Part shown: piece after piece, positions 56,697-63,746 of the stretch
Layout: every line of letters begins with the position of its first letter
Position numbering within the stretch: the stretch's first letter is position 1
Source of the DNA: Ignavibacteriota bacterium
Lineage (GTDB): Bacteria; Bacteroidota; Ignavibacteria; UBA10030; UBA6906
Reading direction: 5' to 3'
Length of the DNA: 64,000 bases
Assembly: GCA_963811705.1 (NCBI GenBank)
Contig: CAWESL010000005.1
Span: 175,278 to 239,277, forward strand
The notes under the pieces: model-generated
Told to the model about the DNA's origin: nothing
Seen by the model: only the letters and a program-made list of their open reading frames with translations
Database searches by the model: none
Position numbers and translations under genes: made by a program

Positions 56697-57738
56697 TTAC
56701 TCCCCCTTGCTCATCTTCGGCCACGAATATCCATACATTGCGATGAGCGCAATACAAAAGAGTGGCACGAGGAAGCTGAACGACATATTGTAAAGATCCC
56801 CAAGGTATCCCATAAGCTCCGGCATGATCGCTCCGCCAATGATCGCCATGACGATGAAACCTGAAGCCCTCTTCGCCTTCACTCCAAGCCCGTGGATGTC
56901 AAGGGCAAAGATCGTCGGAAACATAATCGACATGAAGAAGAAGCTGAGAAACATCGCGCGCTGCCACTGCACCGACGAAATGCGGGTGTGACCAGATGGA
57001 ACGGCTGACGTTGGAGTCGGTTGAGTCGCTCAGGTGATACTCATCCTCTGTATTCAGGTCGGGGACCTTGGCGAAGTAGAAGACCACCGCCATTACAAGG
57101 ACGATCACTGCTACGGCAAGGTAAGGGATGTACAAATGACCCTGGGCGACTTCTGCGTCACCGGCGGAATAAAAGAAGACTCCCCCGATGATGGGACCAA
57201 AAATCCATCCGACACCGTTGAACGATTGAGCAAGATTAATGCGCGCTGCGGCAAACGACTTCGGACCAAGAACCGTTGTATAGGGATTGGCCACCGTCTC
57301 AAGAATTGTCAACCCCATGGCTATGACACACACTCCCAGCAGGAACGCCCAGAATGATGAGATGGATGTTGCAGGAACAAACCAGAATCCGCCCAGCGCG
57401 ACGATCAAGAGCCCGGATATGATGCCTCCTTTGTAACCGAGTTTGCGTGCCAGCCAGCTTGCGGGCATGGCCATCAGAAGATAGCCCAAATAGTGCGCGA
57501 ACTGCACCCAGGCCGACTGTGCCTTTGTCAAATGCAGTTGATCCTGAAAGTGCTTGTCCATCACATCGATCATCCCATTGCAGATTCCCCACAACAAGAA
57601 CAACGTGCTGACGAGTGCAAACGTGAATACGTAGCTCCTGCCATCCTCACTCTTGAACATCTTGGAGAGATCCATGACGACTTCCTTTAGCAACAGCTTG
57701 ACGAGTCGAGCAAGTGACGGCATGCTCATCATCAACAT
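56697..57738 (-). pseudogene. fucP: Degraded L-fucose:H+ symporter (FucP-family MFS transporter)
   Basis: ORF 56899..57738 matches FucP N-terminal half up to …SHPHFVGAVAA then goes out of frame; ORF 56697..56972 matches only the last two TM helices (…FIVMAIIGGAIMPELMG…); ~70 aa of mid-protein missing. Confidence 0.65.
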
Positions 57739-57869: not shown

Positions 57870-58268
57870 GGCGGAGGAATTATATCGAATGGCGGGACTA
57901 ATGGACGATGGTGGGGAGTGGCCTGGTGTAAATTTGGGACGAAATGTCGGTTGTCTCACAATCTTAGAGTCCCCATTCTTCATTCCTCCGGCCTCATCTC
58001 CCCTGCGCGCGGCGGCGAAAGCGATAGAGATTTCGTGCACAAACTTGGAATTGTGCTGAAGGAACTGAATGAATCTGCAATCTGGCTGACCTTCATCCAG
58101 GAAGGGAGGTACCTGATGGACTCAGAGCTCGGAAGGATTCAGGAAGAATGCACGACGATGTGCCGAATCATCGCTGCGAGTATCAACACGGTGCGGAAAA
58201 GATGTGAGAATGAGATGGGAAGGAGATTATCGAAAATTGAGAATCGAAAATCGAGGATCGGAAACTGA
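57870..58268 (+). CDS. Four-helix-bundle protein (TIGR02436-like), probably diverged or truncated
   Basis: C-terminal half GGESDRDFVHKLGIVLKELNESAIWL resembles the conserved SxKDFIHKLSIALKEANET motif; N-terminal region of ORF 57714.. is low-complexity. Confidence 0.4.
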   Translation, partial: GGGIISNGGTNGRWWGVAWCKFGTKCRLSHNLRVPILHSSGLISPARGGESDRDFVHKLGIVLKELNESAIWLTFIQEGRYLMDSELGRIQEECTTMCRIIAASINTVRKRCENEMGRRLSKIENRKSRIGN

Positions 58269-58316
58269 TCAGCAATCCTCGATTCTCAATCATCGATCTT
58301 CGATTTTCGATTTTCG
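58229..58316. repeat. Long imperfect palindrome built from CGAAAAT/ATTTTCG heptamer units, centred on CTGATCAG
   Basis: Left arm ATTGAGAATCGAAAATCGAGGAT, right arm ATCCTCGATTCTCAAT…CGATTTTCGATTTTCG; centre 58265-58272. Confidence 0.5.
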
Positions 58317-58334
58317 TGCACCCACCAGGACTCC

Positions 58335-58383
58335 CGTCTCGCCTTCGGCGAGACGAGGCTCGTCCCGAACTTCGTTCGGGACG
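58335..58383. repeat. Two tandem GC-rich hairpins (9-10 bp perfect stems, TTC loops)
   Basis: CGTCTCGCC-ttc-GGCGAGACG (58335-58355) and CGTCCCGAAC-ttc-GTTCGGGACG (58361-58383); no U-tract on either strand. Confidence 0.5.
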
Positions 58384-58397
58384 GCGAACCTGGAAAC

Positions 58398-58445
58398 TGT
58401 GCACCCAGTAGGACTCGAACCTACAACCCACTGATTAAGAGTCCC
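58398..58445 (-). other. tRNA 3-prime fragment (T-arm plus acceptor 3-prime strand); candidate att repeat at island boundary
   Basis: Minus strand reads …GTAGG-TTCGAGT-CCTAC-TGGGTGC-A (canonical T-stem/loop, acceptor, discriminator), but no matching 5-prime acceptor strand (GCACCCA), D-arm or foldable anticodon arm upstream. Confidence 0.5.
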
Positions 58446-62047: not shown

Positions 62048-62560
62048 TCACGACTCCTCCTTGATTGTGCCGTTTTCCTCGACCCTCAGGGTAATCCACT
62101 CGAACCGTTCCCTCTCAACCGCTCTTTCAATAGATCGTTGGAGATCCCTGTGTTGCCCTGAAGATGATTCTCGGTCGAGCAACACGATACGTTTGACCTG
62201 ATCGGCATTCTTCATTCCATCGAAAACGACAAAATCAATAGGATGAAAGAGAACCTTTGCGTCATCTGGATTCAGTCTGCGAGGAGTGAATACAGGATCG
62301 ATCTTCTTGACAACTCTCCCCGCGGCAATGCGCCCTCTTTGCCGGGCTAGCTCCTGTAATTCCTGTTTACGCTCTTCAAGCTTATCTGCCAACGATTCAA
62401 GCCGGTCCGCCTCCGCATCAAGGGTATCCATCCAATCCGTTCTTGGCTTTGTCCTCAAGAAGACTCTGCAATCGCTTAAGCGGATAAACTCCCGGCACCT
62501 AGGACAAATGCCGAAAATCTGTCTCTGGACGTTGAAGAACTTCAATATCTCTTCTTTCAT
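62048..62560 (-). CDS. Small protein: N-terminal CPxC zinc-ribbon-like motif, coiled coil, C-terminal PD-(D/E)xK-like domain
   Basis: 171 aa from MKEEILKF; GICPRCREFIRLSDC; coiled-coil DAEADRLESLADKLEERKQELQELARQR; C-terminal FHPIDFVVFDG…KRIVLLDRE; ATG overlaps upstream stop (ATGA). Confidence 0.55.
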   Translation of the reverse strand: MKEEILKFFNVQRQIFGICPRCREFIRLSDCRVFLRTKPRTDWMDTLDAEADRLESLADKLEERKQELQELARQRGRIAAGRVVKKIDPVFTPRRLNPDDAKVLFHPIDFVVFDGMKNADQVKRIVLLDRESSSGQHRDLQRSIERAVERERFEWITLRVEENGTIKEES

Positions 62561-63065
62561 TTCTTCACCTCCTGCTTGTACACATCCCAAAGGAGGCGTT
62601 TCTTCGCTATAACCGATCGTATTTCCTTTTGGTGGTTGTTCAAGCGTGCATTGCCTGTCTTGATGTCCGTAAATAGAATGCGCTCAACCTTCCCTTTGGC
62701 GCTAAGACCCTCGAAAATGATATAGTCAATCGGGTCGAATAACGAACGGCAGTCATTGGAGTTGAAGCGGAACGATTTCATGGCTGGAGCTAGCCGCTCA
62801 GTATGAATCCAATGTTGATTGATTTGGCTCCCACCTCAGACCGCTTGCTGATGTTCCTTCTCTCTTCCCGCAGTTCCTTTACCTGCTCGCGGAGTTGGGC
62901 AACGCGCTCTTCATAGAGTTTCTCTGCTTCTGGAGTGAAGCTGTCAAGATGAAACAGATGAGCATCCCGAAGACGAATCGTTTCCTGGCAACTTGGACAT
63001 ACCACATAGAATCGCTCATGGGTGAGCGTATGGATGATCTGCTTGGCAATTCCCGAAAGATCCAT
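62557..63065 (-). pseudogene. Tandem paralog of 62048-62560, split into 91-aa N-terminal and 74-aa C-terminal ORFs by a ~26-nt insertion/frameshift
   Basis: 62790..63065 (VVCPSCQETIRLRDAHLF…coiled coil…AKSINIGF) aligns to the N-half and 62557..62781 (FDPIDYIIFEG…ILFTDIKTG) to the C-half of the intact paralog; different frames, 8 nt apart. Confidence 0.5.
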
Positions 63066-63276: not shown

Positions 63277-63746
63277 TCATCGACGTGCGACGCTTAGTCG
63301 CATAGCTTCATTGAGCAGCGCTTCCATGTTGTTGCGAATTTCCGCCAGATCATCGTTTTGCCTGTTTGCTAGATTTACAACGATCTGCGCCGATCGCGGG
63401 GTCAGAAGTCGTTGCGTAAGTATCCCGAGGCCATATAGGGGACTCCATGATGACACCATTGCGGCCTTTACTTCACCTCCGAAGGAATTCGGTTTGAGTC
63501 CAAAAATGCGCAATGGAATTTGATCGGTATTCGATAAGGAAAGGCACCAGCCTCCCCGATTCTGTCTCCGGAAACATCATATTCACCGACCAACTCAGCA
63601 AGGGCCGCGATCGCCTTTTCTACGGTCAACGCGAGTGAATCTCCGCTCAGCCAACTGCTGACCCTCCTCGTATTACTCCCCCACAGTCCAAATCTGACGC
63701 ATGTTAGGAAATCAATCTCATTACTCTTTACCACCTTTAGCCGCAT
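63277..63746 (-). CDS. Two overlapping hypothetical ORFs (92 aa and 78 aa), possibly one frameshifted gene
   Basis: ORF 63468..63746 and 63277..63513 overlap by 46 nt in different frames; no family recognised. Confidence 0.25.

Follow-up and report, generated by a model that had tools for sequence, protein, structure and literature searches.

A conserved pair of paralogous PF10107 nuclease genes, one of them frameshifted, in an Ignavibacteriota genome

The 64,000-nucleotide stretch of DNA analysed here (the window) comes from an Ignavibacteriota bacterium (GenBank assembly GCA_963811705.1, contig CAWESL010000005.1, positions 175,278 to 239,277 of the forward strand) and carries, on the reverse strand at 62,048 to 63,065, two adjacent genes for small paralogous proteins that we call B and A. 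The A gene is intact and the B gene is interrupted by the loss of one nucleotide. The pair is probably an autonomous cassette for a heteromeric nuclease, of which one subunit is active and the other degenerate; it would serve in defence or addiction and be inactivated in this genome unless the lost base is an assembly error. A preliminary description, made from the sequence alone, had read the same segment as tandem paralogues, one of them split by an insertion, next to a large ATPase. The annotation of the window has to be corrected in that the 'split paralogue' belongs to a known family of predicted nucleases and has been put out of frame by the loss of a single base, and the pair is no local oddity but a fixed, co-evolving and coupled cassette found in at least nine bacterial and archaeal lineages.

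Two paralogues of a predicted nuclease family

Both proteins belong to Pfam family PF10107 (Endonuc_Holl; predicted PD-(D/E)xK nucleases; gathering cutoff 23.8 bits). The A protein scores 55.1 bits (9.9e-15) and the C-terminal fragment of the interrupted B gene (B-C) 69.9 bits (2.8e-19). The N-terminal fragment (B-N) has no PF10107 match by itself, and once a single base is restored the repaired B protein reaches 85.7 bits in one continuous stretch, residues 49-164, that spans the frameshift site. A nuclease-like character had been suspected for the paralogues from their motifs, and the scores of A, B-C and repaired B, all above the cutoff, bear this out. PF10107 has been published as a PD-(D/E)xK family (PMC1189080, PMC3424549), and the fold is assigned here because of the Pfam match together with this classification; AlphaFold2 models were not used for any claim about the fold. 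Both low-confidence models begin with a helix and a hairpin, continue with a long helix (about 45 residues) and pass into an alpha-beta-beta-beta-alpha-beta order, which in A comprises a helix at 43-87, strands at 101-105, 110-114 and 124-128, a helix at 134-149 and a strand at 157-160, with a pLDDT (predicted local distance difference test) of about 50 in the domain. A Foldseek comparison of the A model with the PDB returned nothing at E <= 0.001, only noise. Profile searches of PDB sequences likewise gave coiled-coil noise only, and no solved structure is detectable by sequence. The N-termini of the two proteins (MKEEILKFFNVQRQ..., MDLSGIAKQIIHTL...) are hydrophilic, as judged from their sequences.

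The tandem paralogy proposed in the preliminary description is well founded. In BLASTP, A is 34% identical to B-N (E 3e-07) and 30% identical to B-C (E 2e-13), and hhalign matches the profiles of the A-type and B-type subfamilies with a probability of 98.9% (E 2e-17). The best homologue of A, P0121, is 79% identical to it. MAFFT sets nine residues of B (95-103) against a gap in A, and hhalign puts the length difference elsewhere. Residue counts here and below refer to 120 homologues for each of the A-type and B-type subfamilies, and the nine extra residues are present in all 120 intact B-type proteins. The length difference of about 26 nucleotides thus distinguishes the subfamilies and is not the lesion. 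A and B share about 30% identity and belong to two old subfamilies that separated before the pair spread through bacteria and archaea and have since travelled as a fixed pair, in place of the local duplicate that had been supposed.

A single-nucleotide deletion in B

The coordinates given earlier for all three open reading frames (ORFs) hold, and the intact A protein is 170 amino acids long from its ATG, not 171; a longer, TTG-initiated version of the ORF would have 180. The coordinates of the locus are collected in Table 1.

Table 1. Features of the B-A locus, in window positions
Feature	Position	Strand	Remarks
B gene, B-type PF10107 nuclease, disrupted	62557..63065	-	169 aa once one base is restored
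B-N fragment, 91 aa	63065-62790	-	N-terminal helix, CPSC knuckle, long helix; C-terminal end ...IGFILSG*
1-nt deletion site	between 62800 and 62799	-	missing G of the CTG-GAG junction, codons L89-E90
Premature TAG, product of the frameshift	62790..62792	-	
B-C fragment, 74 aa	62781-62557	-	first residue Met96; D114 and D134-I-K136 present, E90 absent
A gene, A-type PF10107 paralogue, intact, 170 aa	62560-62048	-	D109, D129 and R130 kept; Lys of (D/E)xK replaced by E131
ATGA overlap	62557..62560	-	A start codon 62560-62558 / B stop codon 62559-62557
AGGAGG Shine-Dalgarno sequence for A	62573-62568	-	within the 3' end of B

How B came to be split was first explained by a recent tandem duplication, one copy of which had received an insertion of about 26 nucleotides that introduced an in-frame TAG and a new in-frame ATG and left either a decaying duplicate or a two-part protein. 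The explanation draws on the two B ORFs and on the nine-residue MAFFT gap in A, and we now give it next to no credence. Three-frame translation assigns frame 1 of the strand to B-N and frame 3 to B-C. What divides B is therefore a frameshift; a stop codon and a restart sharing one frame would have left both fragments in that frame. Alignment at the DNA level with intact homologues (L001, L004 and L005; L088, L006 and L012) reduces the lesion to a single one-nucleotide deletion at 62800/62799, where B reads ATA CTG AGC GGC TAG and the six relatives read ATH YTN GAR CGN (Ile-Leu-Glu-Arg); the base that was lost belongs to a pair of adjacent Gs. The ATG at the start of B-C encodes a conserved internal methionine, Met96, found in 106 of the 120 homologues. 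The nine residues taken for an insertion are shared by every intact B-type protein, at a position on which hhalign disagrees with MAFFT, and the low identity between A and B speaks against a recent duplicate.

The part of the explanation that envisaged a disrupted, decaying copy stands, and the two-part protein does not. Each of the 120 best homologues of repaired B is encoded by one continuous ORF (162-192 amino acids), and an exhaustive profile search recovered mostly full-length forms of 164-176 amino acids, the shorter entries looking like truncated metagenomic ORFs. Owing to the frameshift the invariant E90-R91 and P94 are absent from both fragments; if both were made, the enzyme would still be short of a catalytic residue, because E90 is lost from either piece. 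As read from the sequence, a GGAG lies 9 nucleotides upstream of the B-N ATG and nothing resembling a Shine-Dalgarno sequence stands just upstream of B-C. Programmed -1 ribosomal frameshifting was considered and rejected, as the site (A-CTG-AGC) has no slippery X XXY YYZ heptamer and the relatives are all single-frame.

After repair, B shares 85% identity along 100% of its length with the intact 169-residue proteins P0001 and P0002. Measured against L001 (79% nucleotide identity), its ratio of non-synonymous to synonymous substitution rates (dN/dS) is 0.09, and its 169 codons contain no further indel and no further stop codon. All residues that are invariant among B-type proteins are kept except those at the break site. 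Codon 25 (62991-62993, reverse strand) specifies serine in a CPSC motif, where 117 of the 120 B-type proteins have cysteine (CPCC) and 3 share the serine variant. A first metagenome DNA scan for near-identical relatives, in which a shared deletion might have shown itself, came back empty, and a second returned only the known lineage at 79% identity. Because of the low dN/dS and the absence of a second lesion, the break is either very recent or an assembly error.

Of these two, the error is a possibility that we take seriously but do not favour: sequencing or assembly would have dropped one base, and the true genome would hold an intact 169-residue B gene and a working cassette. The restoration of a perfect ORF by one base, its dN/dS and the lack of further damage, the retention of the invariant residues outside the break and the location of the loss in a GG pair all agree with such an artefact. 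On the other side, many long uninterrupted ORFs (888-1549 amino acids) in the window suggest a low indel error rate, the deletion site is not a long homopolymer, and the window B protein carries a serine at the near-invariant Cys25. Other genomes contribute the independent decay of further cassettes, which also counts against an artefact here: A is frameshifted in L075 (10001-10503), B is truncated in L036 (4492-4737) and L070 (4505-4876), and only remnants of A are left in L077 (1238-1507) and L080 (3697-3970) (Syntrophaceae). We take B in this genome to be a non-functional, recent and otherwise ordinary pseudogene, unless the missing base is an error of sequencing or assembly.

Catalytic residues and cysteines

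The two subfamilies differ in what remains of the nuclease active site. The B-type proteins have a complete E-D-(D/E)xK set without exception (E90, D114, D/E134 and K136, each 120/120). In A-type proteins D109 and D129 are retained, and the position of the lysine is taken by E in 55, Q in 36 and K in 16 of the 120; the position of the glutamate aligns to R94 in MAFFT or to K85 in hhalign. The preliminary description had remarked on TDIK in the split copy against LLDRE in the intact one, and this contrast (D-I-K in B, D-R-E in A) is real and holds across each subfamily. The A-type subfamily has invariant residues of its own, namely D88, D99, D100, K102, H106, R130, Q141 and S143.

The same description had assigned a Zn-ribbon to the paralogues, which is not established. 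Conserved cysteines are C23, C25 and C26 in B-type proteins and C19 and C31 in A-type proteins, with C22 present in 65 of 120; each chain has one CPxC knuckle, neither has a complete four-ligand zinc ribbon, and the sole Pfam zinc-ribbon match (E 0.039) lies below the cutoff. The two subunits may share a metal site.

A fixed and mobile B-then-A cassette

Repaired B and A, used separately as queries, have hundreds of full-length homologues each, and the two sets lie on common contigs. A scan of 185,579 species genomes yielded 71 loci, and in essentially all complete loci among the 85 examined B precedes A, adjacent and on the same strand. The hosts are Acidobacteriota, Bacteroidota (many of them Chitinophagaceae), Ignavibacteria, Gemmatimonadota and Chloroflexota, and in addition phyla of the candidate phyla radiation, Nitrospinota, Bathyarchaeia and Thermoplasmata. 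Two cultured isolates, Hydrotalea sandarakina DSM 23241 (L048) and Terrimonas sp. R1 (L068), have intact B-A cassettes; the Hydrotalea locus also has a third, distant PF10107-like ORF at 2120-2617.

The spacing of the genes is as regular as their order. The ATGA coupling noted earlier in the window, in which the start codon of A overlaps the stop codon of B, is confirmed, and the same 4-nucleotide overlap recurs in 22 of the 70 loci with both genes; the genes overlap in 36 of the 70, and in 56 they overlap or are separated by no more than 5 nucleotides. Many other loci have GGAG or GGAGG motifs like the Shine-Dalgarno sequence of A. The distance matrices of A and B correlate with r = 0.90 over 65 loci (Mantel test, 0 of 999), and the mean divergence of the two proteins is equal. 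Nucleotide homology to the nearest relatives (79%) extends from codon 3 of B to the stop codon of A, and the flanks are unrelated. Because of the fixed pairing, the spacing, the correlated divergence and the restriction of homology to the two genes, the pair is an old, co-inherited and horizontally mobile cassette, which moves as one piece between unrelated genomic surroundings in bacteria and archaea.

A phage origin of the cassette was considered and rejected: relatives were found neither in 2.9 million viral contigs nor in PHROGs, and phage or plasmid records contain none except distant single-gene COG4741 proteins of Acinetobacter.

Genomic neighbourhood

The large ATPase beside the pair is encoded by an intact gene of 888 amino acids (61696-59030, reverse strand) and combines an N-terminal PHP domain with an SMC-like ABC (ATP-binding cassette) ATPase. 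It passes the NCBIfam cutoff for TrlF (365.5 bits against 350) and is akin to Ppl, an anti-phage protein, whose models it matches with 216 bits in NCBIfam and at 3.9e-47 in PADLOC. The paired genes could on this ground be the accessory, effector or immunity part of a three-gene system built around the ATPase, as the preliminary description had hinted, and their common strand, the distance of 350 nucleotides and the shared low-GC (guanine plus cytosine) island are in keeping with such a system. The comparison between genomes makes it very unlikely. When the 10 kb around the pair was searched by tblastn with the window ATPase, none of 85 other loci (0 of 85) turned out to have a TrlF homologue there, and because of this the adjacency is not a conserved association; homology with the closest cassettes stops at the A stop codon, and these cassettes adjoin AIPR or DraIII and methyltransferase genes instead of TrlF. 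The TrlF/Ppl-like ATPase merely shares the low-GC island with the pair and is probably an independent single-gene defence candidate. A search of the literature for TrlF, or for 'Holliday junction resolvase-like' together with 'defense', returned nothing relevant.

The surroundings of the cassette vary from genome to genome. Its 128 immediate neighbours fall into 116 Pfam families, none of which occurs in more than two neighbours. A descriptive tally of them includes SIR2 with HerA, AbiU/AIPR, AbiEii, GmrSD, WYL regulators and transposases, and restriction-modification neighbours include XhoI, Bsp6I, DraIII, BsuBI/PstI and Eco57I-like genes. No methyltransferase lies consistently next to the B-A pair.

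This variability bears on the suggestion that the pair is a housekeeping repair or recombination enzyme, a heterodimeric resolvase of Holliday junctions or other branched DNA. Structure-specific repair nucleases are typically heterodimers of an active and an inactive paralogue, as in XPF-ERCC1 and Mus81-Eme1. The pair often has ordinary metabolic genes for neighbours, and the relatives of PF10107 include the Holliday-junction resolvases of archaea as well as the YraN group (PMC1189080). We nevertheless consider a housekeeping resolvase unlikely. The cassette occurs patchily (71 loci in the species genomes scanned), in a pattern suggestive of horizontal transfer, the pair has no fixed genomic position or conserved repair-gene neighbour, it stands repeatedly beside restriction-modification, Abi and SIR2-HerA genes and transposases, and pseudogenisation is frequent.

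In eight loci (L019, L023, L028, L029, L033, L050, L053 and L078), from Acidobacteriota, Gemmatimonadaceae and Bathyarchaeia, the pair is adjoined by a GHKL/HATPase_c_3-like ATPase of about 470 amino acids. In seven of the eight this gene lies within 70 nucleotides of the pair and on the same strand, upstream or downstream, and it may be an optional third component.

Further features of the window surround the locus. Just upstream of B, at 63277-63746 on the reverse strand, ORFs of 92 and 78 amino acids overlap in different frames and may represent a second frameshifted gene; neither matches Pfam, NCBIfam, PADLOC or PHROGs, and their conceptual fusion has no match in Pfam or in a PDB sequence search. 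The letters at 58399-58442 (reverse strand) resemble the 3' half of a transfer RNA (tRNA), comprising the T-arm GGTTCGAGTCC and the acceptor end, with an 18-nucleotide partial second copy at 58317-58334; neither ARAGORN nor Rfam finds a complete tRNA at 58317-58442. GC content goes from about 0.56 to about 0.50 from the tRNA fragment to the end of the window, and this resembles an att-type boundary, with TrlF and the nuclease pair inside an integrated island. AT-rich short repeats at 58213-58330 (cgattttcgattttcg; atcgaaaatcgagga on the opposite strand) separate the tRNA fragment from a 23S-rRNA-IVP-like ORF, and for these repeats Rfam gives only spurious sub-threshold microRNA matches. Near the start of the low-GC island an ORF for a transporter of the major facilitator superfamily (MFS; 56899-57738, reverse strand) has only 279 amino acids, covers profile positions 17-203 of 347 and may be truncated. 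Nothing informative emerged when the surroundings of the locus were scanned for promoters, terminators, tRNAs and Rfam families.

A putative heteromeric nuclease

The explanation that we favour is the autonomous cassette named at the outset. Both proteins of about 170 residues would consist of a short helix, a cysteine-bearing beta-hairpin knuckle, a helix of about 45 residues and the minimal PD-(D/E)xK domain of PF10107. The long helices would join A and B into a heteromeric endonuclease, whose two cysteine knuckles may share a metal. Cutting would fall to the B subunit alone, with A as a structural, targeting or restraining partner, and the cassette as a whole would act as an autonomous defence against mobile elements or as an addiction module of the toxin/antidote type. 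A more specific version can be put forward only tentatively, namely that the cassette is a previously undescribed, horizontally mobile immune or addiction system of bacteria and archaea. Its PD-(D/E)xK endonuclease would be an obligate heteromer, B contributing the complete catalytic set and A, the degenerate paralogue, sensing for B or gating it, the two being joined by a coiled coil and possibly by a metal site made of half-knuckles like the zinc hook of Rad50.

Several observations weigh against the favoured explanation. Many neighbours of the cassette are housekeeping genes (urocanase, fumarylacetoacetate (FAA) hydrolase, a CLC channel, MFS transporters), and the enrichment of the cassette in defence islands is a descriptive one. 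The models of PADLOC-DB v2.0.0 gave no meaningful match to A, B-C, repaired B, P0001, P0089, P0121 or P0159, the only match being to the coiled-coil-type LmuB (0.002). The physical association of A with B is something we infer from sequence, and no B-A fusion was found with a concatenated B+A query or in the exhaustive profile search. The AlphaFold2 monomer models are poor, with a pLDDT of 62 for A (34-sequence alignment) and 54 for P0002 (32 sequences). As to the degenerate state of A, its subfamily has many invariant polar residues (D88, D99, D100, K102, H106, D109, D129, R130, H137 and Q141), and because they are so many its active site may be rearranged but working. Lastly, the deletion in B may be biological or an error of assembly; the searched collections hold no closer relative, and queries for sequences identical to A or to the TrlF protein matched no record.

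The pair lies outside the catalogue of PADLOC-DB v2.0.0 (2023) and constitutes an uncharacterised variant architecture of a known predicted-nuclease family. We found no published description of the pair in the literature and, in the searchable literature, no experimental characterisation of any PF10107/COG4741 member. If the cassette does act in defence or addiction, the known modules of this sort gain a compact one of two genes, and bacteria would provide an example of an active nuclease teamed with a pseudo-nuclease, an arrangement more familiar from the repair enzymes of eukaryotes. The cassette is open to experiment, as both Hydrotalea sandarakina DSM 23241 and Terrimonas sp. R1, which carry it, are in culture.

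Comparison with known systems

The closest known counterparts are the classical COG4741 proteins, which are encoded by single genes, have an N-terminal transmembrane helix and share the motif E-(V/I)D-E(V/I)K (PMC1189080). The C-terminal 110 or so residues of both window proteins match the PF10107/COG4741 model, and the B-type subfamily carries the motif. The likeness ends at the N-terminus, which in the window proteins is formed by a hydrophilic helix, the cysteine knuckle and the long helix, and in the organisation as a fixed pair of two subfamilies, of which the A-type has neither the lysine nor the glutamate. The family motif is thus absent from the A-type paralogue and present in B-type proteins, but the B fragments of the window are without E90.

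With toxin-antitoxin and abortive-infection cassettes the pair has in common that it is compact, coupled and mobile, that its variable flanks often contain defence genes or transposases, and that it decays frequently. It differs from them in matching no PADLOC v2 model and in having components that are paralogues of one another, which is unusual for toxin-antitoxin pairs.

Type IIT restriction endonucleases such as BbvCI and Bpu10I are encoded by two adjacent paralogous PD-(D/E)xK genes whose products form one heterodimeric enzyme. The adjacency of small PD-(D/E)xK paralogue genes is the same in the B-A pair. To our knowledge, both subunits of the type IIT enzymes are catalytic and their cognate methyltransferases are always linked, unlike the B-A pair, which has no consistently adjacent methyltransferase.

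Active and degenerate nuclease paralogues are combined in XPF-ERCC1, in Mus81-Eme1 and in the alpha/beta tRNA-splicing endonuclease of Crenarchaea. These heteromers belong to other nuclease families and have other roles, and the assembly of A with B is one that we infer. The resemblance, which is offered as an analogy only, lies in the use of two paralogous subunits of nuclease fold, one of which has the full catalytic set.

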